A DNA stretch of 64,000 nucleotides from a virus (IMGVR_UViG_3300009826_000020:1-64000), one strand, 5' to 3'. Positions 3,064 through 42,478 are shown, counted from the first letter of the stretch. Notes: a model not told the origin generated them from the sequence alone. A program made the numbers and translations.

Positions 3064-3366
3064 CTAGCGCCTTCTCGCTCGGCTCTTCTCCAGTACCTCA
3101 GTGGCGAGACGGTCACGGTAGTGCCGTAGGCACGTATCGACGGCGTGGGCGAGCATGGAAATCCCGGCGGCACCAGCAATGACCAGCACTTCTGTTCTGA
3201 TGTGCTCGTGCAGGACCAGGATCCCGCCCACGGCGCAGATCACAATATTGAGTGCTGCTTTAAACCATGGTGCCTGATAAACCCCCATCCTGGCTGCGAC
3301 CTCCTTCCATAGCTCGGTGAGTCTGGTCGCCCCGAGGCCGAGCAGCAGAGCGTAGAGCGCTACCAC
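3064..3366 (-). CDS. membrane protein (holin-like topology)
   Basis: three hydrophobic segments and basic C-terminus; GTG start at 3366 overlaps upstream stop (ORF track starts at 3441). Confidence 0.6.
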   Translation of the reverse strand: MVALYALLLGLGATRLTELWKEVAARMGVYQAPWFKAALNIVICAVGGILVLHEHIRTEVLVIAGAAGISMLAHAVDTCLRHYRDRLATEVLEKSRARRR

Positions 3367-4004
3367 AGGGTGGGATCGAGGGGTGGCATCACCGATCCTG
3401 CCATGTAGGTGACCGAATACGTGGTCGAGAGGGGGATCCAACGGTAGATCTCGCTGTTGATCCTGGCGAGTCGCTTGGACCGACCCGGGAAGTAATAGGC
3501 AGCACCCGTGACCGGGTCCTGCAGGTAGTCACCCGTGCTCATGTTGATCGTGGTTCCGTCCATGAACGGTGGCATCGATACCGTGGGACTCAACATAGCC
3601 GAGTTCAGCAGGAAATTGCCCTGTGGGGCAAGGGGAAAGCGCACGAACGGGAACATCTGGTTGGGGAATTCGCCCGTTAAGGGCCGCTGGGGCGGTTCGC
3701 TCAGGTAATCGTTGCTGCCGTCCGCAGGGGATATGGCATATCGCTCGTAGTCGGTGGTCAGGTTGTAGTTGGTCGACGTCTCAACCCAGGTGCCATCTGA
3801 GTAATACCAGCGGAACCCGAGCGTCATCACGGCAAGAGAGGGGTCGAGGATCGACAGGTATTTGGCGTAGACGCTGAAATTGAACGGCTGCCCCTGGGAG
3901 ACGTTGTACGGGGCGACGTTGCAGTTGAAGGGCGGCTGTGCGCCCGGAGGGAACCAGATCCCGCCAACGATCTCCTGGCTGACGCTGAAATAGTCACCCG
4001 GCAC
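3360..4004 (-). CDS. baseplate/tail protein; looks like the C-terminal half of the gpI-like protein at 40350-42478
   Basis: beta-sandwich remainder (QGQPFNFSVYAKY...LGFRWY) ending in YYFPGRSKRLARI...RWIPLSTTYSVTY, the kind of C-terminus seen in gpI-like baseplate proteins. Confidence 0.6.
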   Translation of the reverse strand: MPGDYFSVSQEIVGGIWFPPGAQPPFNCNVAPYNVSQGQPFNFSVYAKYLSILDPSLAVMTLGFRWYYSDGTWVETSTNYNLTTDYERYAISPADGSNDYLSEPPQRPLTGEFPNQMFPFVRFPLAPQGNFLLNSAMLSPTVSMPPFMDGTTINMSTGDYLQDPVTGAAYYFPGRSKRLARINSEIYRWIPLSTTYSVTYMAGSVMPPLDPTLW

Positions 4005-4008
4005 GGGC

Positions 4009-4392
4009 CTACCTCAGCTTTTTTGCATAAGCACCGGCTGCGATGGTGAAGGTATCGCCCAGGTTCACGGGCTTGGGTGTGGCCAGTTCCCCGAACCATC
4101 TTCGTACGGGGGTGGGGGCCGAGTCCCACTCCTCAACCCCCACCACGATGCAATCGGGCATGTTCACCCAGGCCAGGGTCTCGTTGGTGACGATGACCTC
4201 ATCGGCGGGGTAGGCGAAGGTCACGTCCTGCCGGGTGTAATCGCCGCCCTCCACCTCCTCCCCCTCGGTTGTCTTCGTGCCCATGACGGTCACCAGACCC
4301 ACCTTGATCGGAAGGACAGGGGCCGGGTACTCGATGAGGCCGACCTGAGCCGCCAGGATCGAATTCGACTCGACCATCGTTAAATTTGGCAT
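4009..4392 (-). CDS. small virion (tail-fibre-associated) protein
   Basis: EVEGGDYTRQDVTF...FGELATPKPVNLGDTFTIAAG pattern; likely start MPNL at 4392. Confidence 0.65.
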   Translation of the reverse strand: MPNLTMVESNSILAAQVGLIEYPAPVLPIKVGLVTVMGTKTTEGEEVEGGDYTRQDVTFAYPADEVIVTNETLAWVNMPDCIVVGVEEWDSAPTPVRRWFGELATPKPVNLGDTFTIAAGAYAKKLR

Positions 4393-4589
4393 GCGTTCAC
4401 CCTTTCGATGCACAGAGGACACCCGTCATCTGCACAACAGGCGAAGTGCTTTGTTAGCGTGACGTCATCCTCGATGACCTGGATATGGCGGGGCAGGTCA
4501 TCGAGGCGTCCACATTTATCACAGGGACGGAGCAGTGCCCCCCGTATCCCCAGGGCTACTGCTCTCCCTCTCCCGCAGTACTCGCACAT
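4380..4589 (-). CDS. Cys-rich small protein
   Basis: CxxC, CxxC, CC..CxxC; TAATCT 6 nt upstream of ATG. Confidence 0.5.
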   Translation of the reverse strand: MCEYCGRGRAVALGIRGALLRPCDKCGRLDDLPRHIQVIEDDVTLTKHFACCADDGCPLCIERVNACQI

Positions 4590-4598
4590 GACATCAGA

Positions 4599-5129
4599 TT
4601 AGTGGTAAATCACTCCTCGGCTCTCCAGCCACCGGTACAGATGCTGATTGACTTTGTACCGATGGCCCCGCAAAAAGGTCATGGGCGGGTTGCTTGCCCC
4701 GTAGGTCATCTGCTCGATGTCGGTGTTCACCCGGATGATACGAAGCTCGCCCTCGACCGAGACGGGTCCCTCGACTTCCTGCACCTCATGAGGATTCCGG
4801 TATGGCGCAGGGGGCCGCTGCTGTGTTTCAGGTGTCTGGAGGTTTTTCATCGGGTCATACCCGGGCACAACCTCAGTCGGATCGAGGATAGGGTCTTCCT
4901 CGACTGACACGGGTTCGTTCAATGCCTCGATTTTCGCAGCCGCCTCTGAGGGCATCTCAATGACCTGGCCGGTAGCTGGATCGAAAATGCCCTCTTCTTC
5001 GGTTACGACATCGACCTGGTTGACGAGGCCAACTTCCTTCTGTCGCTGTGCCAACTCTTCGGCATTTTCCTCAGCCAGGTGCTGTCGCTGCCGCCCGGTG
5101 AAGTCCCCCTGCTGTGGTCCTCTGGGCAT
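4599..5129 (-). CDS. conserved capsid-operon protein
   Basis: 176-aa ORF just downstream of the capsid gene; C-terminal IIRVNTDIEQMTYG...FLRGHRYKV motif. Confidence 0.65.
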   Translation of the reverse strand: MPRGPQQGDFTGRQRQHLAEENAEELAQRQKEVGLVNQVDVVTEEEGIFDPATGQVIEMPSEAAAKIEALNEPVSVEEDPILDPTEVVPGYDPMKNLQTPETQQRPPAPYRNPHEVQEVEGPVSVEGELRIIRVNTDIEQMTYGASNPPMTFLRGHRYKVNQHLYRWLESRGVIYH

Positions 5130-5329
5130 TATCGGTTGTGCCTCCCACGGGCTGTCAGGCTATTGATGACTGCCTGTTTGTACTGAGCGGGTGTGAGTCC
5201 CATACCTTCACCAGGTTCCATACTGAGGACGTCGTTCAAGCCCTCCTGGGCCACAGACGGATAGGGACGACGACCTGTCTCGGGTGCGTCTATTTCGGCG
5301 TAGCCTTTTCTCTGAATCCTTCGTGGCAT
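5129..5329 (-). CDS. hypothetical protein
   Basis: 66-aa ORF coupled between the capsid gene and the next gene. Confidence 0.55.
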   Translation of the reverse strand: MPRRIQRKGYAEIDAPETGRRPYPSVAQEGLNDVLSMEPGEGMGLTPAQYKQAVINSLTARGRHNR

Positions 5330-5335
5330 GGTACG

Positions 5336-6358
5336 TTAATTGGTAAATGCCAAAACGATGCTCTGATCAGTGATCAGCCCAAATCCCCATATTGCATACC
5401 AGCACAGGGCGTGCTCACGTCCGAAGTCCAAAACCCCACCATCACGCAATTCGACCGGTAGCGCAATGGCATGGCCGTAGGCGTTGTCGCCCAGGTAAAT
5501 GGCACAGTGGGTCACACCGGCATTTCCGTAGCTGGTGGCCGGGATCGTGACCGGGCCGTCGCCGGGGGCGAATTGGCGTACCTGGGTCGTCTCGATGTAG
5601 ACGACGTCGTTCAGCCGCCCGATTTCCCCGATCATGAAGTTGCCGGGTGCGGCGTACTTCGTGACCTCTATGAATTCCGGGTTGTCACGCAGACGCCGTG
5701 ACTGGTGAGGGTCAATGAAGCAGACGTAGGTCTCACCGATGCGGGGGACGTTCTTGGTCGCCAGGGTCTCGACGGCATCTTTGGTGACATTGACCGAGAA
5801 GTAATACTCGCCCGCCAGATCGTCGTAGCTCGTGGCCACGTCGCCTGGATCGTAGTAGAGCAGGGAGTTCGTGGGCGTGGTATTGCGGGGCCAGTTGTAG
5901 CCGAAAATCACCGAGGATGCCTGCATGAGGGTATCTCGGGCGGATCCGTCGAGGTATTTGGCCATATTGCGCCCGAGGAGACGGGAGGACGAGGCCATCA
6001 CGTCATCGAAGGAGGAATTGAGCAGTAGCTCGGATACTGAAACGGCGTACCCCTGCTCGGCCACGGTGATGGCGTACTGGCTGGCCGTGAGGGCAGCGGT
6101 CTGCATGCGGACACCTTCAACCAATTGGGTCGCATCGCCCAGGTTGTTATAGCGCATGAAGTTGATCTGGAGTCCGGGCTGAATCCCCAACTCTGTCTTC
6201 TTCACGGCGAACTGCTCGAAGCGCAGCACAGGCATGGACTGGAAGAGGATTTCCTTCGACCAGATGACCTGAATTGCGGGCGACAACTGTGAGTTCGTTC
6301 CGGCATACCCAGTGGGCGAAGCGCTCAGTAGCGGGGTGCCAGTAATTGCGGATGGCAT
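5336..6358 (-). CDS. major capsid protein (N4-gp56 family)
   Basis: LSPAIQVIWSKEILFQSMPVLRFEQFAVKKTELG...VELRDGGVLDFGREHALCWYAIWG; follows scaffold and portal. Confidence 0.92.
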   Translation of the reverse strand: MPSAITGTPLLSASPTGYAGTNSQLSPAIQVIWSKEILFQSMPVLRFEQFAVKKTELGIQPGLQINFMRYNNLGDATQLVEGVRMQTAALTASQYAITVAEQGYAVSVSELLLNSSFDDVMASSSRLLGRNMAKYLDGSARDTLMQASSVIFGYNWPRNTTPTNSLLYYDPGDVATSYDDLAGEYYFSVNVTKDAVETLATKNVPRIGETYVCFIDPHQSRRLRDNPEFIEVTKYAAPGNFMIGEIGRLNDVVYIETTQVRQFAPGDGPVTIPATSYGNAGVTHCAIYLGDNAYGHAIALPVELRDGGVLDFGREHALCWYAIWGFGLITDQSIVLAFTN

Positions 6359-6389
6359 ACTGCCGTAACCTCCTGATTATTTAACGGTG

Positions 6390-7187
6390 CTACCTCTGCG
6401 GTCGCCTGCTCTGTGATGCTGCACGGAGAAGGGGTTCACGCACTTGAGCGTACTCTTCGGGCGACATCGCCTTGAGTTCATCTGATGTATATGTGCGTGA
6501 CGACTCACTCGCCTCCATAGGCCCTATGGGGGGTGCAGTCACACCTGCAGTCGGCCTGGTGCTGTTCACCTGCCGATAACCATTCACCACGTTGGTCATC
6601 AGCAACTGTGATTTTTCCATCAGAAGATTTATGGATGCGTCGATCTCCTCCTGGGAATTCCCTGCGACGAGATCCCGTAGCTCAGGAGTGATCTGGTCAC
6701 CCACCTCTGCCATTCGCTGGGCAAGGTAGGTCTGGAGGGAGGCATGGCGGCGCTCCTGGTCCAGTACTGCCAAGGCCTGCTCACGAGCTTGACGCTCCTC
6801 TTGTAAGCGGGCCTCCCACTCCGCATCCTTTCTGGCAATAAGGTCACGGAGTTCCATTTCTTCTTCTTCTTTTTTCTTCGCCGCCTTTTCGGCGTCTCGC
6901 TGGGCCTTGGCCTCGGCCTTGACCCGATCATCCTCTACCTGGCGATATCGGGCCAGTTCTGCATCGAGGGCGTCGGCACGCTCCATCTCCTTGGTGTAGC
7001 GGTTGCGCTCCTCATTGCGGATCCGGTCGATGTCCTCCTGGCTGAACACCTGAGGCTCTGCGCCGGTACGTTGCTGGCGTCCCCTCCCCTGGGGGGCCTC
7101 TTCTTCCTGGGCGGGAATGGTGATCGTGTCAGGTGGCTGTTCCTCCTGCTCACCTTCGGGGGGAATCTCTGGTTCGGTGGTGGTCAT
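6390..7187 (-). CDS. capsid scaffolding protein
   Basis: acidic coiled-coil between portal and capsid; C-terminal ELKAMSPEEYAQVREPLL. Confidence 0.8.
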   Translation of the reverse strand: MTTTEPEIPPEGEQEEQPPDTITIPAQEEEAPQGRGRQQRTGAEPQVFSQEDIDRIRNEERNRYTKEMERADALDAELARYRQVEDDRVKAEAKAQRDAEKAAKKKEEEEMELRDLIARKDAEWEARLQEERQAREQALAVLDQERRHASLQTYLAQRMAEVGDQITPELRDLVAGNSQEEIDASINLLMEKSQLLMTNVVNGYRQVNSTRPTAGVTAPPIGPMEASESSRTYTSDELKAMSPEEYAQVREPLLRAASQSRRPQR

Positions 7188-8930
7188 TTATCCTCCTGAC
7201 CCCTGGTCTTCTTCTGGGGTTCTCCTCTGTGGCATGGTGGTGCCTTGAGACAGGGTCACTATCCGCTGGAACATCCTGGCGACACCCTTATTGTTGACGA
7301 GGTCGACGCCCGGGAGCGTACCTATTTGCTGACCAGCAGAGTTTACGTCCCCGCCACCGGCAGAGGTTACGCCGCCCCCACCTCCACCCTCGCCGCCCTC
7401 TTCGACAGGCTGGGGGCCAGCCGGGTTCATCATGCCCGTCTGTGCCGCCGTGAATGCAGCTATCTGCGCCCGCAGAAGCTCCAGGGCTGCCTGCTGTTCG
7501 GCGTCGTCCACCAACTCCTTGAACAATTCCTGCAGCTTCTCATCGGGGAATTCCTCGCCCAACTCGACTAGCGCACCACGCTTTGACTCCAGGCCCAGTC
7601 CCATTTTCACCTGTAACTCGTTGAGCACCACCAGCCGGTCCACGGGGAGGGGTGGCTGGAATTTGACCATGTTCTCGTAGGTCTGGGGATCCATTGGGTC
7701 GAGCATGGGCAACTGGTCGTCCCTCAAGGGAGGGTCCCACTCGGGGTTGTAGACGACCGTGTCCGGTTCCTTCATGAAAAGGGTCTTGAGCGCCAGGCGA
7801 TTTACCTCGGACAGACCCTCGCCATACTGGGTTTCCTTCAGGTGGAAGCGGTTCATCAGGGGCTGGTACTGGATGGCCAGAGCGACCCCTGAGGTATTCG
7901 AGATCGCCTGCTCCTCGCCCAGGGCGGTAACGGGTACGCCGGTCATCTCGTGCATAGACCGCTTGAGCGTGTCCAGTAGCTGAATTGCCGACTCGATGCC
8001 CCGGGGGTCCATGAGCAGGCTCTCCACCCTAGCGTCCTTATTGGGGATGCTCCAGGTCTGGTGACTACCTTTTTCCAGGTTGGTCGCCCGGGCACCGATC
8101 ACCACTGTCACGGGGGCGGCGTGGTAATTCACGATGTCGCAGATGTCGGTAGCCGTCTCGTTGTACTGCCGGTTCAGTACGGTGATGTCCTGAATATCCG
8201 GCATGCCCCAGGGGGAAGAGGCGATGGGCATGTTGGCGATATGCACAATGGGGATTTCCCCGAGGGGATTTTCTCGAGAATCTATCAGTTCGTCGTTGAC
8301 GTATTCCTCTATCTGCTGCTCGGTCAATAGCTCGGTGTAGGTGAAGACCTGCCTGGTGCCCTCCTGGGTAGTGCCCCAGAAACGGTACTTGAGCTTGAAC
8401 CGGATCAGCCGCTTGCGGTCATGGGGATGCCATTCAGGGAAGCAGAACGCCGAATTGAGCGGGAGAATCCGCACCCGCCCGGGATGTGGCATGCCAGAGG
8501 GATCCGCCCAGGGTTCCTCATAGGCGACTTTGATGAAAGAGTCGCCCGTGACGGACCCCATGGACCCTATCTCCCAAAGGAGGGATTCCTTCTTGTTGTC
8601 CTTCTCCCATATGCGCTGCAGGCGGGTGGGGATGATGGCAGAGGTGGCATCAGGTGACTGGAATCCTGCCCCTTTGCCGAAGACGAAGTTGGTGGTGAAG
8701 TCACTAAGTGCCCTCACGTAATTGACCGTGAGTTGAGGCTCACCCAGATCCGGCCTCTGTGCCCAGTGATACCCGAGGTAAAACGCCCAGTTCATGGCGT
8801 AGCGGTTCAGCCTGGGGCCGTGTACCTCGAATTCCTCATCAGCTAACTCGACCAGACCCAGGGGGGAGATCTGGATGGTGAGGTCGGAGGAGGCGGCTCT
8901 ATAGCTTGGGGACTGAAACTGGATGCTCAC
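7188..8930 (-). CDS. portal protein (SPP1 gp6-like)
   Basis: 580 aa; GSVTGDSFIKV, NPLGEIPIVHIAN, SGVALAIQYQPL motifs. Confidence 0.9.
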   Translation of the reverse strand: MSIQFQSPSYRAASSDLTIQISPLGLVELADEEFEVHGPRLNRYAMNWAFYLGYHWAQRPDLGEPQLTVNYVRALSDFTTNFVFGKGAGFQSPDATSAIIPTRLQRIWEKDNKKESLLWEIGSMGSVTGDSFIKVAYEEPWADPSGMPHPGRVRILPLNSAFCFPEWHPHDRKRLIRFKLKYRFWGTTQEGTRQVFTYTELLTEQQIEEYVNDELIDSRENPLGEIPIVHIANMPIASSPWGMPDIQDITVLNRQYNETATDICDIVNYHAAPVTVVIGARATNLEKGSHQTWSIPNKDARVESLLMDPRGIESAIQLLDTLKRSMHEMTGVPVTALGEEQAISNTSGVALAIQYQPLMNRFHLKETQYGEGLSEVNRLALKTLFMKEPDTVVYNPEWDPPLRDDQLPMLDPMDPQTYENMVKFQPPLPVDRLVVLNELQVKMGLGLESKRGALVELGEEFPDEKLQELFKELVDDAEQQAALELLRAQIAAFTAAQTGMMNPAGPQPVEEGGEGGGGGGVTSAGGGDVNSAGQQIGTLPGVDLVNNKGVARMFQRIVTLSQGTTMPQRRTPEEDQGSGG

Positions 8931-9796
8931 CCGAAATACATCTCCTCTTGGTCACCCTCGTCTCGCCATCGATCTTCAAGGGTGGACCTCTCCTTGGCAG
9001 GGAAGACCTTGCGAGAAGCCATATAGGTCTTGTAGGCAGTTTCTGCCGGGGGCACCTTATCCCAGTTGTAGGGTCCGAAATACTTAGCAAAGGATTTGGG
9101 ATCACTCTCGTACCCAATCGGCGGTCCTACCTCACGCCCTTTACTGACATTCCGGGGATCGTCACGCCAGTGAGCCTGAGCGTAATCATCGGCAAAGGCT
9201 TCATCCCTGCCACGATGCTCGGCAAGGGCCTGAGATGGTGAGATATTTGGACGATCAGGAGGCAGGGCGTTCTGGTAGTCGGCAGTGGCATGACCCAATT
9301 CATGCATCAGGCCCTGGGCAGCAGATTCGTTGGCCCAATGTGACTCACCCTTGCTATAGCGAGGTTGATTCAGAGATATCCTGCCACCCTCGTCTCCAAA
9401 TTTCTTGGGTGAATACACACCCTCCCCTCGATTGTTGCCTAGCTGGACGTTGACTTTCCTGCCCTCATTGCCGCTTGGATCAATGTCAGCCAGGTTCATG
9501 GTTGAGCGTGCAATGGCTTCATGAACCTGTCGAGGCCCAGCCGGTGTGTCAAATGCCTGTGGACTATCAGGTTTATTGGCCTGGACATCGACGGTAGCCC
9601 TCACCTTTCGCATTCGCTCCGGGGTGTACCCACGGGGGTATCGCACTCTGTCTTCAGGCTTAGGGTCAGTGAAAAATTTGCCCTGAGAGGGTTTCTGTCC
9701 CTGTCCAGGGAAGTATGGGCGCACTGGTCCAGCAGGATTGGCATGGATTCCCTGAGCTTCTGGGAATTGCTGGGTGCTCAGTGCTCGGTGGCTCAT
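8927..9796 (-). CDS. putative zincin metallopeptidase-domain protein
   Basis: GLMHELGHAT (HExxH) followed by DEAFADDYA. Confidence 0.55.
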   Translation of the reverse strand: MSHRALSTQQFPEAQGIHANPAGPVRPYFPGQGQKPSQGKFFTDPKPEDRVRYPRGYTPERMRKVRATVDVQANKPDSPQAFDTPAGPRQVHEAIARSTMNLADIDPSGNEGRKVNVQLGNNRGEGVYSPKKFGDEGGRISLNQPRYSKGESHWANESAAQGLMHELGHATADYQNALPPDRPNISPSQALAEHRGRDEAFADDYAQAHWRDDPRNVSKGREVGPPIGYESDPKSFAKYFGPYNWDKVPPAETAYKTYMASRKVFPAKERSTLEDRWRDEGDQEEMYFG

Positions 9797-10008
9797 CGTC
9801 CTGTTTGTTCGTAATAGCTCTGCTGGGTGACGGGGAGCTTCCTTCTCTGCTGCTGCTTCAGGATCGACTTGACCTGGTAGCGGTACTGCTGCTGGGGCGA
9901 AACAGCGGCCACGGCGGCGTGACGGGGCACGAACTTGGTCAGATTCGAGGAGTCCCTCCGCATGCCGTAGGCGTCATTGGAATTATCGCCCCTGATCCCC
10001 GTGGTCAC
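9793..10008 (-). CDS. hypothetical basic protein
   Basis: 71-aa ORF with 4-bp overlaps on both sides. Confidence 0.55.
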   Translation of the reverse strand: MTTGIRGDNSNDAYGMRRDSSNLTKFVPRHAAVAAVSPQQQYRYQVKSILKQQQRRKLPVTQQSYYEQTGR

Positions 10009-10325
10009 CGGTATTTGGCGTAGGCCCGGGCCGTCTTATTGTTACGGTCGGTGACCTTCATGGCATGGGCGGCAGCCTGGTCATTGGATGTTCCCGGCTT
10101 TTTCTTAGGGGCTTCCTTTGCTGTTATGGTCGGTGCTCCTCTCTCCCGTGCCTTTTTCGTGGCGTTCTGGAGGAGTTTTGCTCCTTTAGAGGTATAGCCT
10201 GGAACTTCATCTGACTTCTTGGCTGGTTGTTTCTTTGCTGGCGGCATATCCTTGGCCTCCTTTAAGACCTTTGCGACGAACTTCTGGTGAACGGGCTTCT
10301 GGGGGGGTGGCTTTTTCTCAGCCAC
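10005..10325 (-). CDS. Lys-rich small protein
   Basis: GTG start (AEKKPPPQKP...) overlapping upstream stop; ORF-track start at 10517 is probably too far upstream. Confidence 0.6.
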   Translation of the reverse strand: MAEKKPPPQKPVHQKFVAKVLKEAKDMPPAKKQPAKKSDEVPGYTSKGAKLLQNATKKARERGAPTITAKEAPKKKPGTSNDQAAAHAMKVTDRNNKTARAYAKYR

Positions 10326-10533
10326 GCTGGGTCGGATCGTCAGGATCCTTGGGGCGGGTCGATCCCTCATAGACTCCGTCGACCGCATCCTGCAGCTTGC
10401 TTCCATTAGCCGCCCCCCGAGGGTCCCCCCGACGGGGGATAGAGGCCAGGGGATTGTCGTGTGGGTTGCGACGGTCGTTCCAGAGGGTCTGGACGTCCAT
10501 GTAGGGGATCGGTTCATTCGGGATATTGGACAT
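10318..10533 (-). CDS. hypothetical protein
   Basis: 71-aa ORF in the coupled chain. Confidence 0.55.
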   Translation of the reverse strand: MSNIPNEPIPYMDVQTLWNDRRNPHDNPLASIPRRGDPRGAANGSKLQDAVDGVYEGSTRPKDPDDPTQRG

Positions 10534-11774
10534 CAGAACAACTTTCCTTGACGGCCAGGGCTGGGCTGCCTTACCCGAGCTTGCTGGACGGGGTTTAATA
10601 CTGATTCACTGGGAGGTTTTTGTACACCTTTGTATCGGCCCCGAGGTTTACTGCTGTAGGACGTGATTTTCTGTTCAAACCAGTGAACTGGTTGCGCTAC
10701 ATGGGCTGGTAGTCCACGTTGTTCACCAGCCTGTCTCAGGGTGTGGGAAGCGTAGAGGTTTAGTGCATCTATTTCTTGCCCAGGTTCAAAAGGATGAGGA
10801 ACTCTAAGGGTTTTGTTTGAGTGGCTTCCTGCCACGAGATCGGCTCTAGTGTCTTCTCCGAAATCCTTGATGCCTGCCGCCCCACGATATTCATGTCGAT
10901 CGATAACGGGATTGGCATCAGCTATCCTGGGGAATTCCTGTGCATCACCATAGGTGGGAGCCTTGACTGCCCAATCTGAAGCTGCTATTGCACTTCTAGC
11001 GGGCGTACCTTTATTTGTTTCACCTTTCACATCTAAGGGGTGGACTCCCTGGGTGGCCTGGGTCATGACTCTTGCAGCGTTGCGTGCCGTGGTGTGCGTA
11101 CCTCGACTATATGTCCCACCCTTGGAGAATTGCTCAGTGTCGGGGTCTGTCTGTAGGGCCTTCGCCACCGCTTCTGTTCGTTGAATATCCTCTTCGGGAG
11201 CAGTATTGTGACTCAGTGCTGCCCGCCCGTAATGGACCGAGGAGACATTCATGCCTAGGTGGGCGGCAAGCTCTCCACTCCTACGTTGGTCGGTCCCAGG
11301 TCCACCAGTGTAATAATCTTGACCTTCGGCAGAATTAGAGCCTCGGTTAGATGCACGGATGTAGGCATTGTCGAGGTCACGACCGTAGTTTTTGATCATG
11401 TCTGCCTCGGACACCCCAAGCCTTTTTTCTACGTAACTTCGTACTCTGTTCTGAGTCTCGAATGGTAGATCGGTGAATTTTGCCTGTCGCTTGAAATCCG
11501 TTGGATTGTTCTCAGGGCCTAGATCCAGTCGACCTTGTGTCTGTTGTTTCTCTAATTGTTGCTTCTGTGTGGGAAAATCTGCCCATTTGGGGTCTAACCA
11601 ACCGTGGGCTTCGTAGTCCTTTTTGTTGTACTCACCAGGCTCCTTGTCAAAGGCCCCCGGTATGCGTTCTGGCATAGGCAGCACTCGTGCTCTGCCTGTG
11701 CCACTCGCTCTCTGCACTACGTTTTGAGGCCCAGGAATATCATTGGTGGCAGCGGCTGTGTTTTTTCTTGCCAC
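10533..11774 (-). CDS. phage protein with DUF7178-like (helical glycosylase-like) domain
   Basis: YY...ELAAHLG...AALSHNT...NAARVM..G.HPLDV...VIDRH...R.AGEQRGLPAHVAQPVHW pattern; GTG start at 11774. Confidence 0.45.
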   Translation of the reverse strand: MARKNTAAATNDIPGPQNVVQRASGTGRARVLPMPERIPGAFDKEPGEYNKKDYEAHGWLDPKWADFPTQKQQLEKQQTQGRLDLGPENNPTDFKRQAKFTDLPFETQNRVRSYVEKRLGVSEADMIKNYGRDLDNAYIRASNRGSNSAEGQDYYTGGPGTDQRRSGELAAHLGMNVSSVHYGRAALSHNTAPEEDIQRTEAVAKALQTDPDTEQFSKGGTYSRGTHTTARNAARVMTQATQGVHPLDVKGETNKGTPARSAIAASDWAVKAPTYGDAQEFPRIADANPVIDRHEYRGAAGIKDFGEDTRADLVAGSHSNKTLRVPHPFEPGQEIDALNLYASHTLRQAGEQRGLPAHVAQPVHWFEQKITSYSSKPRGRYKGVQKPPSESVLNPVQQARVRQPSPGRQGKLF

Positions 11775-11776
11775 TT

Positions 11777-12360: not shown

Positions 12361-12367
12361 GTCCTCC

Positions 12368-12985: not shown

Positions 12986-13020
12986 GCATGGAGGTTAGCA
13001 CAGTCTGAAGAAGGAACTAC

Positions 13021-13422: not shown

Positions 13423-13478
13423 AGGTACCTCCTCGTATTGAATAGAGGCTAGGTCAATGTCCTAGTACCCTTGCGTGC

Positions 13479-15445: not shown

Positions 15446-15482
15446 GGCCCTCCAGCCTAGATCCCTGGGTCCTCCGTCCCCT

Positions 15483-31608: not shown

Positions 31609-31626
31609 AGAAACAGAGGAGCCACG

Positions 31627-32504: not shown

Positions 32505-32514
32505 GCTTGCAGGC

Positions 32515-33845: not shown

Positions 33846-33848
33846 AAA

Positions 33849-35003: not shown

Positions 35004-35010
35004 CTGACAC

Positions 35011-35985
35011 ATGACCATGCTCGATACCTATATCCCCTTCGATCAGGGTCCCGGTGCTACGGCGACTGCCCCTCGCTGGCGGCAGATGGCCCGGAACTTC
35101 TGTGGTTCAGGGGTGATCCCCGGCTATCTCAACCAGATGACTCCTACATTGGCCGGTACCAACCTCACCATCGCTTCAGGTGGGGTCATGTGTGATGGGA
35201 TGTACGGGGAAAATGCTGGCCCGAAGACCTTTGCTGTTTCTGCTGCTGGGATTGCTGTTGCACGCATGGATCCCACGGCGAGGTCGATCTCCTTTGCCTG
35301 GCTTGCTAATGCCACCACCTATACGCAGAATCTCACGGGTATCTTCGAGGTCCCTATCGCTATGGTGGTGAACAGCGCCCTGGTCGATTTTCGAGAGTGG
35401 GCAACCGGTGGGGGTGGAGTGGGTGGCAGTCATTCAGAAGGGATGATCGGAGAAATACGGGGGTTCGCTTACTCGACTCCTCTCCCTGGTTGGATCGTCT
35501 CTGATGGGCGTTACCTTGACCGTGCCCAGTACCCGGAACTTTTCGCTAAAATCGGCGTGGTATACGGCTCGACCTCAGCTACTAATTTCCGAATCCCTGA
35601 ACTCACCGCACGGGTTCCCTTTGGTGCGAGCGCCAATTATGCCATGGGGACATGGGGTGGGTCTGCGACCGTAACGCTTACTACGGCTCAGATGCCCACC
35701 CATAACCATGGCAATACCGGTAATATTAGTGCGAACCACGTACACCGGAATACAGTACCGACGAGTGGGACAAACGGGGCGACCATCATCAGTTGGTCTG
35801 CATCCACAATCCATATCGCTTACTCGCCAAGTGGTGAGCCGGTCACGATTGACTCATCAGGAACCCAGACCTCTCAGATAGAGAGTGCCAACCACGTTCA
35901 CGCTACGGCCAATGCCGGAAGCAGTAATTCCCACGAAAACATGCCGCCCTACATGGTCATTACCTGGATGATCAAGGTGCGGTAA
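35011..35985 (+). CDS. tail fibre with tail-collar domain
   Basis: IGEIRGFA..PLPGWIVSDG.YLDRAQYPELFAKIG..YG....FRIPEL..RVP; HENMPPYMVITWMIK. Confidence 0.85.
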   Translation: MTMLDTYIPFDQGPGATATAPRWRQMARNFCGSGVIPGYLNQMTPTLAGTNLTIASGGVMCDGMYGENAGPKTFAVSAAGIAVARMDPTARSISFAWLANATTYTQNLTGIFEVPIAMVVNSALVDFREWATGGGGVGGSHSEGMIGEIRGFAYSTPLPGWIVSDGRYLDRAQYPELFAKIGVVYGSTSATNFRIPELTARVPFGASANYAMGTWGGSATVTLTTAQMPTHNHGNTGNISANHVHRNTVPTSGTNGATIISWSASTIHIAYSPSGEPVTIDSSGTQTSQIESANHVHATANAGSSNSHENMPPYMVITWMIKVR

Positions 35986-36416
35986 TGACCTTCGTCCAGC
36001 CCGCCAATTTTCGCCAGCTACCCCTCCAGCGGGAGATGGGGCAGCCTTTTCACATCGACGCTGCCGGGTCTGTCGCACATGAATTTGATCCGGCCCGGTG
36101 GGCACGTAGTCATATCCTGGCAATCCTGCTGACGAATCCTGGTGAGCGGGTGATGCGGCCCACCTACGGGGCAGGCCTCCAGCGGCAGTTGTTCGAGAAC
36201 GATGACTCGGTCATCGAGACGCAGTTGAACACGGCTATTCGTCAGCAACTGGCCACCTATGAGCCGAACGTCCAGATCAGCGAGTGCAAATTTGTCTTCA
36301 CTGCTGATTACTCTGGAGTCATGGAATTGCAGATCGCCTTCTGGGTGGGGTCGAACCCGTCCCTGCGGACGGTGGCCATCACCATCGATGGCACGGCTAT
36401 TGAGGTCAGGGTATGA
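35985..36416 (+). CDS. baseplate wedge protein (gp25/GPW-like)
   Basis: ILLTNPGERVMRPTYGAGL..LFE...YEPNV. Confidence 0.9.
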   Translation: MTFVQPANFRQLPLQREMGQPFHIDAAGSVAHEFDPARWARSHILAILLTNPGERVMRPTYGAGLQRQLFENDDSVIETQLNTAIRQQLATYEPNVQISECKFVFTADYSGVMELQIAFWVGSNPSLRTVAITIDGTAIEVRV

Positions 36417-38284
36417 GTACCTCGCCAGTTTCCCTCGGGACGGTCTCGGATATTATCCCGTCCTCGATCATCGTCCCCCCTGTCGATTACACCAGCCGTG
36501 ATTATGCCTCGCTGGTGAACGACATGCTCAACCTGATCCCGAGCTATTTGCCGGAGTGGACCGACCGGTCTCCAGGGGATTTTGGCATCGTGATGCTGGA
36601 ATTGTTTGCCTACGTGGGCGACATCCTGAATTTCTACTCAGACCGTATCGCCAATGAGGCGTATATCGGTACAGCCCAGCAGCGGCAGTCGGTGCTGAAT
36701 ATCGCCAACATGCTGGACTACACGCCTCATGGCAATGTGGCGGCGAGCGTTGTGCTCAGTTTCACGATCTCCTCGCCCTCGGGTCCTGTCCTTATTCCAC
36801 AAGGGTCCCAGGTCTCCACCATGCTCACGGGTATCAAGGCCACGATCTTCGAGACGGTGGAAGATCTCTGGGTTTATGGGGACGGTATCTCCACCACAAA
36901 AGTCATTACCAGTAATGGTCTGCCGAATCAGACCATTCTGATGGACGATCCTTCACTGCCTTACCCCTCTTACAATTTTACCGGTGGTTCCGAGCATCAA
37001 TCGGTTTCGGTTGGCGGTGAGAACTGGCCGATCTCGGCTGGTAATGAATTCCATGGGATCGGGACGGACAAGCTCTACACTGTGATCAACGGTAATACAA
37101 TCCAGTTCGGAAATGGGATCAACGCCGCCATCCCCCCTGCTGGTCAGTCGATAATCGTCACCTTTATACCTGCAGTCCCGGGCACCTACGTGGGTCAGGT
37201 CAATGCTCTCCAGGGGGAGAGCCAGATCGGTGAGGGTATCGGGATCTCTGATGGTACGCCCAACCAGCAATATACCCTCTTCAATACCCCGGTGGTAGAC
37301 GGCTCGATCCAGGTCTTTATCAACGAGGGTGCGACTCCCACCGAGTGGATCTATCACCAGCGGATGATCGATGCCTTCTCCTCAGAGGGCGCATATACCT
37401 ATGACGTGGACGCCAACGGTGTCGTCACCATTCGATTCGGGGATGGGATCTCAGGACGCATTCCACCCCAGGGTGTGCTGATTTCTGCCAACTATATGGT
37501 CGGTGGTGGGTCTATTGGCAATGTCGCCGCCCATTCCATCACCCAGATGATGTCCGGCATTACCGGTGTGGTTGCTGTCGACAACCCGGATGCTGCCACA
37601 GGTGGAGCCGACCAGGAGACCATCGACCACATCCGCATCCACGCTCCCCTGTCGATGTCTGCCATCAACAGGGCCGTGACCCTGGACGACTACGCCGCTC
37701 TCACGCTCAACGTCCCGCAGATCGCCAAGGCCGCAGCCATGTCGACTGCCTACAACCAGGTGAACATTTTCATTCATCCAGCGGGTGATTTTCTTGCCAC
37801 TGGCCCTGAGGACACCACTGGAATAGCTACCCTGACGAGGCGTGTCAATGCTCTCCTGCCCTCGCTGACGAATTCCGGCTACACGGGCTACCTTGACGAC
37901 AAGAAAATGGTGAGTACGTCCGTTGTCATTCTGCCTCCGCAGTACGATAATAAAGGCGTGCGCCTGACCGGCTATGTTCCCTGTAATGTCACGGCTACTG
38001 TCCAGGTCTTGCCCCAGTATCATCAGTCGTCTGTCCGGTCACTGGCAGAAGCGGCCCTTCGTAATCTCTTTCTCTTCTCGGTGGTGGATTTTGGATCTCG
38101 AATCACACTATCGAGCGTCTATCATGCCCTCATGAATGTCGAGGGTGTTGACTACGTCAATGTCAACCTCATGGCCCGCAATGAGGCGGATCAGTCAGCG
38201 GCTCCTGCTGACATCGAGTGTGAGGCGTACGAGATCCCCAGGGCCTACCAGATCAACGTCAACGCCAACGGGGGGGTGTTGTAA
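36413..38284 (+). CDS. baseplate J-like wedge protein
   Basis: VDYTSRDY...PEWTDRSPGDFGIVMLELFAY; GGADQET...RAVTLDDY. Confidence 0.9.
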   Translation: MSTSPVSLGTVSDIIPSSIIVPPVDYTSRDYASLVNDMLNLIPSYLPEWTDRSPGDFGIVMLELFAYVGDILNFYSDRIANEAYIGTAQQRQSVLNIANMLDYTPHGNVAASVVLSFTISSPSGPVLIPQGSQVSTMLTGIKATIFETVEDLWVYGDGISTTKVITSNGLPNQTILMDDPSLPYPSYNFTGGSEHQSVSVGGENWPISAGNEFHGIGTDKLYTVINGNTIQFGNGINAAIPPAGQSIIVTFIPAVPGTYVGQVNALQGESQIGEGIGISDGTPNQQYTLFNTPVVDGSIQVFINEGATPTEWIYHQRMIDAFSSEGAYTYDVDANGVVTIRFGDGISGRIPPQGVLISANYMVGGGSIGNVAAHSITQMMSGITGVVAVDNPDAATGGADQETIDHIRIHAPLSMSAINRAVTLDDYAALTLNVPQIAKAAAMSTAYNQVNIFIHPAGDFLATGPEDTTGIATLTRRVNALLPSLTNSGYTGYLDDKKMVSTSVVILPPQYDNKGVRLTGYVPCNVTATVQVLPQYHQSSVRSLAEAALRNLFLFSVVDFGSRITLSSVYHALMNVEGVDYVNVNLMARNEADQSAAPADIECEAYEIPRAYQINVNANGGVL

Positions 38285-39058
38285 ATCCCCGCTTTTCCAT
38301 CCTCGATCAAGGTTTTCCAGACGTTCCAGAATTACACTGATATCATCTGGGCGATCAGTATCAACGAATGTCATGATGAGATCGTCGCCCTTGAGTCAAT
38401 CCTGGGCGTCAATCCTTTCATCGGCACACCCTATACGACCTTCAGTGGTGCCATTCAGGATCTATACGCCAACAAGGCTCCCGCCAACCACACCCACATT
38501 CACTCCAACCTGTTGGACGACAACATAGGGAATGACCATCCTCAGTACATCATGGCGAGCGGGTACCCAGGCTTCAGTGCGCCCGTGGTGGGCGTGGCGG
38601 GTGGTAATGCAGCCAACCTGGTGACCCTGGCCCAGGTGCAGGGCTTCGGCTATGTCAACGAGGCCACGGTGCGCTCCATTGCCACCAGCATGATCAACAG
38701 TGCCGAGGGTGGCCTGATGGTTGGGGCCTGGGGCACTCAGCCCTTGATAGGGGTCGCCCCCAACCCCAGTTGGACGATCCAGGGCGGGGTCTACTCAGCC
38801 TGTACAGACGCCAGTGGCCGGATAACGATCCCCTTCAACCCCCATTATTCGCATTGTGTGCAGTCCGTCTCTGTCACGAAAATGCCTGCAACGCCCCAGG
38901 CAGGTGGCCATTATCCATGCCCACCATATGACTGGATCGAGTCCCAGGTCACCCTTCTTGGCGCATCAGGTACGGGAGCCGTTGTCCAATTCTCCCATGA
39001 CTACAGTTGGCAACCCGGTATGTGGGTGACAATCATGTACATGGCTATGGGGAATTAG
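38285..39058 (+). CDS. minor tail/fibre protein; apparent start codon ATC
   Basis: frame open from 38285 with no ATG/GTG/TTG until 38513; the 76 extra codons align to the N-terminus of paralogue 39059-40336. Confidence 0.7.
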   Translation: MPAFPSSIKVFQTFQNYTDIIWAISINECHDEIVALESILGVNPFIGTPYTTFSGAIQDLYANKAPANHTHIHSNLLDDNIGNDHPQYIMASGYPGFSAPVVGVAGGNAANLVTLAQVQGFGYVNEATVRSIATSMINSAEGGLMVGAWGTQPLIGVAPNPSWTIQGGVYSACTDASGRITIPFNPHYSHCVQSVSVTKMPATPQAGGHYPCPPYDWIESQVTLLGASGTGAVVQFSHDYSWQPGMWVTIMYMAMGN

Positions 39059-40336
39059 ATGTCCGACGTACCGGATATGCCGGTAACTGACCGAGGTGAG
39101 ATCCCACCGGTAGTTGCTAGTCGGCGTTATCCGCAGGCCATACGTAATTTTGTCACCTACCTTGATCAGCCCGGTGGACCGGATCGGTTCCTGGTCACCG
39201 CCAATACCCAAGGCGGCGGGACCACCACCACCGACGTCACCCTTGACGCCGCCGCCGTCACTCGTGATGTGCAGACTGAGATAGTCAGCCTGGAGACGGT
39301 TATCGGTATACGGCCTTGGACTGTGCCCGGGACGGTCGATATCGGTGGTTCAATCAGGTGGCTGTACAACAATAAGGCTGCTGGTCGAGTCGATACTCGG
39401 AACGAAATACCTCCGGCTCCCCCGCCCTCGCACAACCATGTCCACGCCCAGTCGACAGGACTCAATGCCGATGATCACCCGATCTACATGCGGGTCGATG
39501 GCACGAGGCATTTCTCGGCTGCTGTGCTGGGCAAGAACGGCACCGCCGGTAATCATCTGTTGACACTCGGGCAGGTCCAGCCGGGTGGGCCGCTTGCTGG
39601 GCTGACCTCAAGTCAGGTGCAGGCCATCATTCAGGGTCTGATCAATGCCTCCTCGAACAACCCCTGCCGTGGGCCGGATTCCCGCCGATGGAAGATGGCT
39701 GGTGGGGTAGCACAGGGCTATACGGATGCCAACGGTAACCTGGCCTTCAGTATTGCGGCGGCTAAATTCAACGGGATCCTCAGTTTTCTCTTTATGAAGA
39801 TGCCCCATGCGGGTACCACGGCTGTCAACCTGAGCTTCACGCTTTCCGGTGATGTGCTCTTTGCCTTCGACAGTTCGGCCCTCTCGTCCGGTGCTGTGGC
39901 CGAACTGAACAGCATTGCCCTCACGCTGAGGAGTTCGCCCTCTGGGAGTGTGCATGTTGTCGGTCACACCGACTCGATAGGCACGTATGCCTACAACCTC
40001 GGCCTCTCGCAGCGACGGGCTGCCAGTGTGATGTCGTACTTTTCTGCCCATGTTGGCAATTCCCAGCTTCGGTATTCGAGTGAAGGGCGCAGTTATAGCG
40101 ATCCTGTGGCCCCCAACACTCTGCCCAACGGCGCAGATAATCCCGCCGGTCGAGCGCTGAACCGCCGTGTCGAGATCAGCTACGTGCCTGACGTTCGCTA
40201 CGCTTATCAATACATGGAGGATCAGCTTCTGCTCACCTCCCTGACCAATAGCAGTGCAGTCGTCACCTTCATTGAGGATGTCAGGGTGGACAAGCAGGCT
40301 CTGGTCAGCCTCTGTTGGCTGGCACTGGGGATATAG
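39059..40336 (+). CDS. tail fibre paralogue with inserted OmpA-like peptidoglycan-binding domain
   Basis: LSGDVLFAFDS..L...VVGHTDSIG...NLGLSQRRA..V...G.S..DPVAPN...GRALNRRVEI (about 39824-40189). Confidence 0.85.
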   Translation: MSDVPDMPVTDRGEIPPVVASRRYPQAIRNFVTYLDQPGGPDRFLVTANTQGGGTTTTDVTLDAAAVTRDVQTEIVSLETVIGIRPWTVPGTVDIGGSIRWLYNNKAAGRVDTRNEIPPAPPPSHNHVHAQSTGLNADDHPIYMRVDGTRHFSAAVLGKNGTAGNHLLTLGQVQPGGPLAGLTSSQVQAIIQGLINASSNNPCRGPDSRRWKMAGGVAQGYTDANGNLAFSIAAAKFNGILSFLFMKMPHAGTTAVNLSFTLSGDVLFAFDSSALSSGAVAELNSIALTLRSSPSGSVHVVGHTDSIGTYAYNLGLSQRRAASVMSYFSAHVGNSQLRYSSEGRSYSDPVAPNTLPNGADNPAGRALNRRVEISYVPDVRYAYQYMEDQLLLTSLTNSSAVVTFIEDVRVDKQALVSLCWLALGI

Positions 40337-40349
40337 GGAGGAGGACACG

Positions 40350-42478
40350 ATGGGCGTATATGGCCTGGATTTTACGGAGTAGGTCGCTTCGGGCGGGATC
40401 CCGCCCTTGAGCGGCCTGACTTCTCTGTTCAGCCCTTCGCCACCATGCCTCTCAGCTATTCCAGCCTGTACCTGTCCTGGGTGAAGCCCGTATCCCCTGA
40501 CTGCGTGACTCTGCGCCTGGTGCGTACCGGCCTGAACCTCTCCCAGAATCCCGGCGCTGATCCCGGCACTACCACGAATGCCGACGCAGGCTCGGATGGT
40601 TATGTGCTCTTCACCGACACCGTGGATCGGCTACCGAACTTTATTGATGTGGGTCTTGGTGGTGGGTTTTTCTATTACACGATGTGGGGTTGGTCCAACC
40701 AGGACCAGATCTGGATCCGCTGCTCCGATGTGATCGGCCTGGTGCCCCTCAACTGGAACTATGGCTGGCGGCTGTACATGCTCCTCCCCGAGGCCTACCG
40801 GGACCGTGACTGGGTCCTGGTGGATCACTACAACCCTCTGGCCCTGCCCCGGCAGAATGACTTCAGGCCCTACGAGGTGGAGAGTGGTGATTCGTGGCAG
40901 ACACTCGCCTCCCACTACGGCACCACGCCAGAGAGCCTGGCGTACATCAACGGTGAGGTGATCTCGACTCCTCTGACATTGGGTCAATCGATCCTGGTGC
41001 CCTGGCCGAATTCTCCTAACCCGGATCCGCCCCTCAGGCGATTCCTGGGTCTGATCGGATTCCAGTTCGACTTCATCCGCACCGAGCTTGAATCGCTCAT
41101 GAGCGTCAATGACGCCATGCACTGCTCGGGTGCGCTCCTGCCTCTGATGGCTCAGCAGTATGCCCTGGTGCATGAGCCGGAGATCGGGATGCAGCAGGAG
41201 CGCACCTTGGTACAGAACGCCGTGCATCTTTTCAAGCTGAAGGGCACTCCTCGGGGTATTACTGATTGGTGTTCGATCATGACGAGCTACCCCTTCTCCA
41301 GGTTGGTTCACCATGGCTATAACTGTCTGCTATGCCTCGATGATTCGGCCTTTACAGACGGGATAGGTACCTGGCAGTCCTGGCCCCCGAGGGGGGCGAG
41401 CTTCGAGGAGGAAAAGGAGCGCACCTGGTTCGACCCGGACTGGTTCTGTAATCAGACCTTCGGGTATTACTTCGGCTCTGGTGGTGTGAATGTCGAGGTC
41501 ACTGGATTCAAGTTGACCTGGATCCCTGATCTGCCTATGGCTGGGACCTCCAGCCCTCTGGGTGACATGTACCCTGATGGATTCCCTGTGTGGTCACCGG
41601 AATATCTCAATAGCGGTATGAGCCTGTCTGCCGATGGCCCGGGTACGCTGGACACCTGCACTGCAGGCATCCCTATCACCGACTTCGTGTCGGAGACATA
41701 CGGCCCTGGAAATGCCACCTTTCGTGTAGGTGTCTGGTCGCCCACAGCCCGTCAGGTCAACCTCTCAATCTGGGCCGACGAAGGGTCTGACGAGCCGATC
41801 CTCATTGCGGAGCAGAACTTCACCTCGGTGGCCGGTCACTGGTCGCTGTTCACTCTGACCACGCCCATCGATGTATATCCTGACCTGGACGGCCCTGCCC
41901 AGTACTACTGGCTCTATCCCCGTATTCGGATAATAAATGCCGCCGCTCATGAGGTACATTACGTCACGCTGGCTGCCCTCTGGCCCACAACCCCAAACCT
42001 GGTGGGTCTCAACACGCCTGAGTTTGACTATGCCCGTGACCTCAAGGTGAATCTTGAGCCGGTGGCTTCCAATCTTCTCGGTAATACCCTCACGAGTTTC
42101 GACCGTCTTAACCCTGATGATGGCAGGCTACGGATCGGATTCGATGGCCTCTGTGCTGTTGCTGACCCTATTACGAAGGCTGGCCCGCAGACAGGGCAAA
42201 TGGTCTACCGCCGCCAGACTGTCGATGATGCCCCGAGTTCCCTGACCGTCAACGGAAATGCCGCTCTGCAGTTCAACGTGACTGCGCCTGGTGGCACGGT
42301 GTGGTTTGGCAGGATACCCTCCTGGTCGCCCGAACCCCCGACTCCTGATGGATGGTGGGATCCCAAGACCAGTGACTGGTACCCGGGTGCTGGACCTGGA
42401 GCCTCTGCTGCTAGGCCATGGATGAGTGACACACTGGGCTGGTTCGCCATGCCCTTCCCGCCGGGAGTCAGCCTGTGA
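40350..42478 (+). CDS. gpI-like baseplate protein, N-terminal part, with LysM insertion; needs a -1 shift at 40367-40373
   Basis: LPEAY...LRRFL...LLPLMAQQY...LFKLKGT gpI pattern; LysM at 40871-41002; strong SD before ATG 40350, none before ATG 40445. Confidence 0.75.

Follow-up and report, generated by a model that had tools for sequence, protein, structure and literature searches.

Does one baseplate gene of this phage lie in two pieces on opposite strands, and if so, by what event was it cut and what do the pieces now encode? The locus is found in the window, the 64,000-nt stretch of DNA that was analysed, which makes up the first 64 kb of a termite-gut phage contig in IMG/VR (83 kb, ~71% complete). 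The phage is contractile-tailed with a genome of ~117 kb, and the genomes of its relatives are 113-117 kb. An earlier note had proposed that a gpI-like gene was split by an inversion. The coordinates and strings it gave for two ORFs, two inverted pairs of short repeats, an AGTCA repeat and a GAGGT motif were all present in the sequence. The genes concerned are the following.

40350..42478, plus strand: N-part of the gpI-like gene, with LysM and Tail_P2_I domains (called ORF 40445-42478, 677 aa)
3360..4004, minus strand: C-part of the gpI-like gene, 214 aa, with a GTG start at 4004-4002, most of a putative CBM-like beta-sandwich and the conserved ...PPLDPTLW end
4009..4422, minus strand: Gp80-like head-fibre/head gene, 137 aa (PF23140, 38.5 bits; phrog_240)
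1663..3441, minus strand: genes still joined to the C-part, in the order found in relatives
2858-1884, minus strand: gene of a 324-aa protein, second behind the C-part
1884-1663, minus strand: 73-aa HTH_17/Xis-like gene, third behind the C-part
42475..42729, plus strand: 84-aa ORF whose GTG overlaps the TGA of the N-part, one of the called genes of the ENA assembly

Homology of the two ORFs to a single gpI-like protein

The 677-aa ORF (40445-42478, plus strand) ends in ...WFAMPFPPGVSL*. Its Pfam matches were LysM (24.3 bits) and Tail_P2_I (PF09684; 22.4 bits with a cut-off of 20.6, residues 208-278), and PF09684 is carried by many homologues of the N-part. The family-type N-terminus MGVYGLDF was found at the ATG at 40350, one T short of the frame at a TTTT run (40370-40373), and the open frame of the N-part is 713 aa. 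Upstream lie GPW_gp25 (35985-36416), Baseplate_J (36413-38284) and two fibre-like genes, an order identical in the relative L001, and the position of the gpI-like protein in the baseplate module was confirmed. The 214-aa ORF (4004->3360, minus strand) has a GTG start, continues with MPGDYFSVSQEIVGGIWF... and ends in ...PPLDPTLW*. A PHROGs search of both halves gave no match.

The two ORFs match the N-terminal ~650 and the C-terminal ~215 residues of single gpI-like proteins, and the homologues covering both ORFs (n = 50) were mostly 817-1127 aa long. An 886-aa homologue aligned with both ORFs: its residues 664-885 with residues 3-214 of the 214-aa ORF (51% identity, E 9e-71), and its residues 34-647 with the 677-aa ORF. 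The N-part was 48% identical to residues 34-647 of homologue P0009, and identity between the C-part and the final ~215 residues of homologues 859-886 aa long was 51-53%. At the join, ...WFAMPFPPG/DYFSVS..., the alignment fits the family (e.g., WFTMPPGDGSLPSQYFGLG) with no residue lost. Single full-length homologues span the junction, which was one of the checks that the earlier note had asked for. Judged by homology, the two ORFs are the halves of one protein, far beyond chance. This protein resembles P2 gpI-type wedge proteins (PF09684) in its Pfam match, in its place behind gp25/W and J, and in full collinearity once the ORFs are joined. It differs from the other gpI-type members found, all of which are single-chain: here no single polypeptide spans the N-terminal wedge and the C-terminal sandwich, and 677 aa and 214 aa lie 38 kb apart on opposite strands.

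No stand-alone family of the C-part was found among 1.84 billion representatives, where its region was seen only at the C-terminal end of longer proteins or in fragments without the N-terminal part. A stand-alone C-part of 117-375 aa was also absent from 5.8 billion proteins. The split is known from a single phage strain, probably in two termite-gut data sets at 2-8x depth; no diverged relatives carrying it, which would have indicated persistence under selection, were found. An ENA contig of 16.8 kb with adjacent 535-aa and 301-aa ORFs was considered as a second split, and the alignment revealed an in-place frameshift.

Ancestral gene order and the breakpoints

The rearrangement is described by three further features.

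4003..42459: inverted segment of ~38.5 kb, inverted with respect to relatives (synteny with L001 and L006)
3997..4002: left joint J1, CCCGGC, 6-bp microhomology, where region A meets the inverted segment
42460..42465: right joint J2, GCCGGG, reverse-complementary to the J1 copy

The segment contains the minus-strand head module, terminase, genes for replication and recombination (DnaB, SNF2, PolA, RecA), the tail/baseplate genes of gp25 and J, and the N-part of the gpI-like gene. In L001 the order is gp25-J-x-x-gpI(856 aa)-101-323-HTH, followed on the other strand by a 157-aa gene, and past gpI this order is region A of the window read backwards. In tblastn comparisons with L001, the genes after the C-part showed identities of 54% (125-aa ORF), 47% (324-aa protein), 58% (HTH) and 43% (opposite-strand 157-aa protein). 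The 3064 and 1884 genes directly follow the gpI-like gene in L001, an arrangement that had been named as a check of the proposal. The first gene behind the C-part encodes a ~100-aa membrane protein, whose GTG at 3366 overlaps the C-part stop (longest ORF from 3441). The Xis-like HTH gene, which the earlier note had placed 2 kb from the left break, is a conserved neighbour in relatives with an intact gpI-like gene, so it has no tie to the event.

The other ancestral adjacency was recovered from L006, whose major capsid protein is 85% identical. Its order is portal-scaffold-capsid-176-69-Gp80-like, then a stretch collinear with window positions 51469-57759 in the opposite relative orientation. 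Region C thus adjoins the head-fibre gene in L006, and this second adjacency bears out the ~38.5-kb inversion that had been put forward. The Gp80-like gene is placed after the major capsid gene in L005-L007 too. The adjacencies in L001 and L006 together indicate that the segment ~4003-42459 is inverted, and a two-breakpoint inversion of ~38.5 kb is the simplest account of them. The 84-aa ORF at 42475..42729 is a putative gene that would have stood after the head-fibre gene before the inversion; it has no homologue in L005-L007.

Family homology runs in the N-part through ...PFPPG at J2 and in the C-part from P-G-D-Y-F at J1, and the V-S-L and stop that close the N-part are derived from the far side of the joint. 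A second inverted pair (GGCTGAC 3977-3983 and GTCAGCC 42467-42473) and a direct repeat AGTCA (3992-3996 and 42466-42470) are also present. In trials with 60-nt windows paired at random from this genome, the frequency of an inverted match was 52% for 6 nt or more and 19% for 7 nt or more, and 9.5% of the trials had both; the two inverted pairs on their own are within chance. Only the 6-mer matters, since it is located exactly where the family homology changes sides; of the two microhomologies noticed at the breaks it was kept, while the 7-mer pair was set aside as within chance. The extent of the microhomology (6 bp) is one that we infer. Restriction cutting and religation at the palindromic CCGG core were considered as well; CCGG is frequent at 59% GC.

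The reading that we hold to be probable is a fixed illegitimate inversion that yielded a two-chain baseplate protein. One illegitimate recombination event, with a crossover at CCCGGC/GCCGGG, would have flipped ~38.5 kb. One break would fall 4-10 nt past the stop of the head-fibre gene, with no damage. The other would have opened a Trp-rich loop in the last CBM-like beta-sandwich of the gpI-like protein, leaving the 5' part of the gene in the baseplate operon with three codons and a stop added. The 3' part and the three genes behind it now stand after the head operon, where the joint offers a GTG start and GAGGT as ribosome-binding site. The two chains are probably reassembled by strand complementation, and the phage would be viable.

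The usual described outcome of illegitimate recombination is gene exchange at gene borders; unlike this, an intragenomic inversion here cuts a structural gene and both parts are translatable. The case is like illegitimate recombination in its non-recurrent joint at a few identical bases with no dedicated recombinase. Such microhomology-mediated events have been discussed as a source of phage rearrangement and mosaicism (PMC2327257). A literature search turned up no comparable case in phages, which does not prove that none exists.

Translation signals and predicted packing of the two chains

The GTG of the C-part lies 4 nt past the head-fibre stop, and a GAGGT (4015-4011) is found 6 nt upstream of it, within the final codons and stop (TAG 4011-4009) of the Gp80-like gene. 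Random flanks of the genome gave an in-frame start with a ribosome-binding site in only 2.8% of cases. Expression of the C-part is plausible in view of this chance and of the GAGGT-N6-GTG arrangement behind the upstream stop, and GAGGT may now act as the ribosome-binding site of the C-part. A terminator scan found none at J1 and, near J2, minus-strand candidates that were all weak.

The break lies in the low-confidence Trp-rich loop of the last CBM-like sandwich. The AF2 sandwich of the C-part had a pLDDT >90, and the full-length AF2 model of P0010 was poor (pLDDT 55). Foldseek returned CBM16/22/4 (E 6e-4, TM 0.44 on target, 8-12% identity over ~120 columns), and the modelled sandwich may have a CBM4/16/22-like fold with a putative carbohydrate-binding role. 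No solved relative was found by sequence. The complex of N-part and C-part was modelled with an ipSAE of 0.77 (runs 0.82, 0.76, and 0.77; best control 0.00), a score built on alignments of single-chain homologues, which reports packing in the unsplit protein and not the meeting of separate chains in the cell. The ipSAE mark used was attained by 58 of 80 solved complexes and by 2 of 110 mismatched pairs. The runs had at least 61% of contacts in common, and the partner pLDDT was at least 72.

In the complex model, N-part residues 607-626 lie antiparallel to C-part residues 118-141 (two N-part strands, ~607-623). The N-part is thus predicted to stop within the beta-sandwich, as the earlier note had read it from the sequence. 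A break outside the sandwich, suggested by a 301-aa C-part model without the first strands, was overturned by the complex model. Reassembly of the chains is plausible on these models. Of the two outcomes proposed for the locus, two chains or a switch by inversion, the former is the likely one.

A known case of distant gene halves is that of dnaE-n and dnaE-c in Synechocystis, which lie far apart on opposite strands and whose products are rejoined by a split intein. The halves of the gpI-like gene are likewise distant, on opposite strands and in separate chains. In contrast to dnaE, no intein halves were found, and there are no extra residues beyond V-S-L and M-P in the alignment. The chains could therefore associate but not be ligated.

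The inversion could also be real and the C-part a recent, non-functional remnant, leaving a truncated gpI-like protein or a defective dead-end variant that was abundant at sampling. The occurrence in one strain without diverged relatives is in line with this. Furthermore, the pieces from the second sample (X3/X4) are all sequence-identical and of the same strain, so the event may be very young and an intact ORF would then be expected whatever its function. However, the C-terminal region ranks with the most strongly conserved stretches in the family, many of its columns through the final PPLDPTLW being 90% invariant or more, and the start and ribosome-binding site at the joint would be met by chance at ~3% of positions. 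Moreover, the present form was assembled in every run covering the locus, and a truncated N-part would, according to the model, keep two orphan sandwich strands. We regard a remnant as rather unlikely.

The joints in independent assemblies and the comparison with invertible segments

An independent Logan contig (11,462 nt) reads through J1, from 3870 to 9000+. The 677-aa product, including the joint-specific tail across J2, was recorded as an exact match in JGI/IMG, ENA and Logan (two contigs, same neighbours). Both joints are real and present in independent assemblies. No loose end at ~4000 was found in four runs (contigs, 2-8x depth), the X3/X4 contigs having a depth of ~2 in the bin 3901-4200. 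The runs X1/X2 and X3/X4 look like twice-filed data. The depth was 6.2 in region A and 7.9 in the inverted segment; as this difference is not twofold, region A is not duplicated, and a terminal inverted duplication of it was ruled out.

The Mu G (Gin) and P1 C (Cin) segments are ~3-4 kb long, with ~34-bp inverted sites, two alternative C-terminal exons and an adjacent serine invertase. As in these segments, the end of an inversion in a tail/baseplate gene here parts a constant N-terminus from a C-terminal receptor-binding part. A programmed reversible inversion, serving as a phase switch for attaching the distal carbohydrate-binding module to the baseplate protein and releasing it, as in Mu G or P1 C, would agree with the exact reciprocal breaks, the inverted 6-mer at both joints and the in-frame rejoining. 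Its recombinase could be encoded in the 29% of the genome outside the 83 kb, and a minority in the other orientation may be present, rare variants being dropped by contigs. Unlike the known switches, however, the segment spans 38.5 kb and includes essential genes. The repeat is just 6 bp, a size common by chance, with no long inverted repeat at the joints: where invertible segments would have ~25-35-bp inverted sites at both ends, only the 6- and 7-bp matches were found. The earlier note had seen no recombinase in the window, and the full 83 kb also has no serine or tyrosine recombinase (PF00239, PF00589). The present orientation offers no alternative C-terminus or exon, merely three codons and a stop. 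The contigs of the four runs also showed no strand-changing joints at ~4000, and exact-pattern scans of public metagenome and viral contig sets, outside which the window's own record may lie, matched neither the rejoined junction nor either present one. A programmed switch is very improbable on this evidence, and that part of the earlier proposal did not stand. We give equally little credence to a low-frequency reversible inversion by a recombinase from the missing 29% or the host, in which the attached and detached module would represent two adsorption states.

An assembly, scaffolding or MDA chimera, with the gene intact in the real genome, is highly unlikely: one end of the contig is formed by the 4 kb of region A, the depth is low (6-8x), homopolymer errors and indels are present in the contig and the JGI, ENA and Logan assemblies may rest on common reads, but two joins would need exact reciprocity with zero bases lost or gained, the k-mer-based Logan contig crosses J1 without a branch or loose end, a second contig of 20-50 kb has J2 with the same neighbours, a 6-bp overlap is unable to produce a de Bruijn graph misjoin, and X3/X4, from the identical strain, have no loose end at ~4000.

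The fixed inversion would represent a clean natural gene fission in a virus, an instance of a known process and not a new kind of system. Both ancestral adjacencies are recoverable, a 6-bp microhomology pins down the breakpoints, and the translation signals of the orphan half come from the joint. In annotation, the 214-aa ORF would otherwise be labelled a hypothetical protein of the head module. If the chains reassemble, a cut in a beta-sandwich loop is something that a baseplate wedge protein can withstand, and this, if true, would help in designing receptor-binding modules that are split or exchangeable. A phage would then also be able to survive a large inversion that carries part of a tail gene over to the head operon.

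Two parts of one gpI-like baseplate protein

Judging from its gene content, this is a large contractile-tailed phage, whose record is present in termite-gut metagenomes. The source record in IMG/VR, whose bases 1-64,000 make up the window, is linear (83,018 bases; completeness 71% as estimated by CheckV), and contigs carrying the same baseplate module in relatives reach 113-117 kb.

Features of the window and of one relative
4004-3360, minus strand: C-part, 214-aa ORF
8930-4009, minus strand: portal, scaffold, major capsid protein, Gp80-like head-fibre protein
13811-15445: large terminase
plus strand: DnaB, SNF2 helicase, PolA, RecA
baseplate order: gp25/W, baseplate J, two fibre-like paralogues (one with an OmpA domain), then the gpI-like gene
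40445-42478, plus strand: N-part, 677-aa ORF
4879-6486 and 6560-7465 of an ENA contig (sample ERZ26871208): a relative's gpI-like ORFs, 535 and 301 aa

The earlier note regarded the N-part and C-part as halves of one protein, and its strings and coordinates all proved correct when checked against the sequence. The N-part carries LysM and Tail_P2_I domains, and almost all of its homologues (n = 50) have 817-1127 aa, at least ~170 residues more. Both parts align to adjacent stretches of the single-chain homologue P0009 (886 aa), which bears the proposal out: residues 34-647 match the N-part and residues 664-885 the C-part (51% identity, E 9e-71). In a second homologue, P0010, residues 650-858 match the C-part with 53% identity. 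The parts abut in a 28-sequence alignment, where the N-part ends in ...RPWMSDTLGWFAMPFPPG(VSL*), the C-part starts with (MP)GDYFSVSQEIVGGIWF and a family example reads WFTMPPGDGSLPSQYFGLG across the join; no residues are lost and only P-G is duplicated. Among 1.84 billion representatives, every occurrence of the C-part region is either C-terminal in a longer protein or in a fragment without the N-terminal part; the split is thus a derived state, seen so far in this phage alone. Three other C-part-like proteins came from a word-index search at 117-375 aa: two sit on 1.1-1.3 kb contigs, and one is the downstream (3') ORF of a gene frameshifted in place. The relative's neighbouring ORFs of 535 and 301 aa (contig of 16,842 bases) result from a frame change that the alignment places ~50 residues N-terminal to the break position in the window, and which may be an error or a disruption of independent origin.

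The full-length homologue P0010 was modelled poorly overall by AF2 (pLDDT 55). In this model two strands (residues 585-602, equal to N-part ~607-623) precede a long low-confidence Trp-rich stretch, within which the break position falls. A 301-aa C-terminal model gave a confident sandwich (pLDDT >90; C-part residues ~31-150) resembling CBM16, CBM22 and CBM4 modules and one phi812 baseplate chain (Foldseek E 6e-4, TM 0.44). The complex of N-part 430-677 with the C-part scored an ipSAE of 0.77 (runs 0.82, 0.76 and 0.77; best control 0.00). Among solved complexes 58 of 80 attain this mark, and among mismatched pairs 2 of 110. At least 61% of contacts recurred between runs, and the partner's pLDDT was at least 72. 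N-part 607-626 runs antiparallel to C-part 118-141 in the complex model and the sandwich is predicted to be discontinuous; the N-part was rightly said to stop inside a beta-sandwich, with the cut itself in a loop. No solved relative was found by sequence, which means that the score does not echo a complex already known. It rests on alignments of single-chain homologues, and the predicted complex shows the two parts packing together in the unsplit protein and does not speak to separate chains meeting in the cell.

The LysM domain (40871-41002, N-part ~143-186) lies in a ~50-residue insertion missing from P0009 and most homologues, and a peptidoglycan-binding domain of the OmpA type is found in the neighbouring fibre-like protein (39059-40336). 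The presence of two such modules in one baseplate suggests that the host's cell wall is exposed. The family-type N-terminus MGVYGLDF starts at ATG 40350, behind GGAGGAGG, in a frame that reaches a stop after ten codons; lengthening TTTT (40370-40373) by one T gives the reading ...DFYGVGRFGRDPALERPDFSVQPF..., as in all homologues. A programmed frameshift there is no likelier than a sequencing error, because the contig has a homopolymer difference elsewhere. Logan contigs of all four termite-gut runs carry an extra G at 1170-1172 (GGG vs. GG), so at least one homopolymer indel is present in the IMG/VR contig, and the small ORF 1038-1199 is affected by it.

Ancestral gene order and translation of the C-part

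The proposed ~38.5-kb inversion was confirmed by both ancestral adjacencies, found in two relatives' contigs, L001 and L006. The order in L001 (114.5 kb, JGI) is gp25-J-250-294-gpI(856 aa)-101-323-HTH_17, beyond which a 157-aa and a ParB-like gene lie on the other strand. Thus 101-323-HTH_17 stands directly after gpI, a point raised in the earlier note. By tblastn these genes match, one by one, region A (left of the left joint) read backwards: C-part, 125-aa ORF, then the 324-aa, 73-aa HTH, 157-aa and 285-aa proteins. L006, whose major capsid protein is 85% identical to the window's, has the head order portal-scaffold-capsid-176-69-Gp80-like and directly beyond it a stretch collinear with window 51469-57759, in an orientation relative to the head genes opposite to the window's. 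A flip of 4003-42459 between the hexamers CCCGGC (3997-4002, left joint) and GCCGGG (42460-42465, right joint) accounts for both new adjacencies. Because the second break falls 4-10 nt past the Gp80-like stop codon, no known gene other than the gpI-like one was interrupted.

Block 42466-51400 (DUF6445 and fibre-like proteins of 944, 328, 572 and 777 aa) is completely different from 3474-6400 of L006, a close relative with genes conserved from window position 51469 onward, and looks like a replaceable tail-fibre cassette adjoining the right breakpoint. The highly repetitive, collagen-like coding sequence at 51360-51842 (minus strand) cross-matches in many registers the relatives' contigs L005-L007 and regions of the same genome at positions 66-68 kb.

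On the minus strand the left joint reads ...AAG CTG AGG TAG gccc GTG CCG GGT GAC..., with GAGGT six bases ahead of the C-part GTG; the Gp80-like stop codon, GAGGT and GTG are each in part built by the joint. Only 2.8% of random flanks of this genome give an in-frame start and a ribosome-binding site within five codons, which argues that a rearrangement could have survived only if it left the C-part open to translation. Coupling to the next gene is retained as in relatives (GTG 3366 overlaps the C-part's TAG), and the expression timing should be unchanged because both breaks sit in late structural operons. Of the two outcomes proposed earlier, two chains or an inversion switch, the former is probably what the inversion produced. 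A young non-functional remnant is the main alternative to the two-chain protein, and a rather unlikely one.

Origin and authenticity of the joints

Of the two inverted microhomologies reported earlier, CCCGGC/GCCGGG lies at the switch point of family homology, while GGCTGAC/GTCAGCC is within chance. At random, two 60-nt windows share an inverted match of 6 nt or more in 52% of cases and one of 7 nt or more in 19%, with both occurring together in 9.5%; since such 6-7-mers are common by chance, the second pair carries no weight. The hexamer pair matters only through its position, exactly where family homology changes sides. Such a pattern is the hallmark of illegitimate recombination at a microhomology, which at these 6 bp would flip 4003-42459. 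The phage encodes its own RecA; 6 bp is far below the length that homologous recombination uses. The direct repeat AGTCA (3992-3996 and 42466-42470) lies immediately outside both hexamers, a layout like terminal inverted repeats with a target-site duplication, and is probably due to chance because the left copy belongs to a conserved coding stretch (G-D-Y). A programmed switch is highly improbable, as no serine or tyrosine recombinase was found in the 83 kb and no long inverted repeat at or near either joint.

A Logan contig of 11,462 nt (independent contigs in runs X1/X2, likely duplicate filings) begins at 3870 and passes the left joint, and no loose end or strand-changing joint near 4000 was found in the Logan contigs of the four runs. 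JGI/IMG, ENA (contig of 83,020 bases) and Logan all record the 677-aa product in exactly this form, including the final residues that span the right joint; its neighbours (84-aa ORF, DUF6445 gene and 944-aa gene) recur on a second contig of 20-50 kb that encodes it. An inverted duplication of region A was excluded by depth (6.2 vs. 7.9 in the inverted segment). The assemblies may share reads and depth is low, but an assembly or MDA artefact is very unlikely, given the bridged left joint, the recurrent right-joint product and the need for two exactly reciprocal chimeric joins at a 6-bp overlap, which is not the output of de Bruijn assemblers or MDA.

The derived 38.5-kb inversion that split the baseplate gene is real. 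Gene fission and phage inversions are already known, and this case is a variant of these and not a new kind of system.
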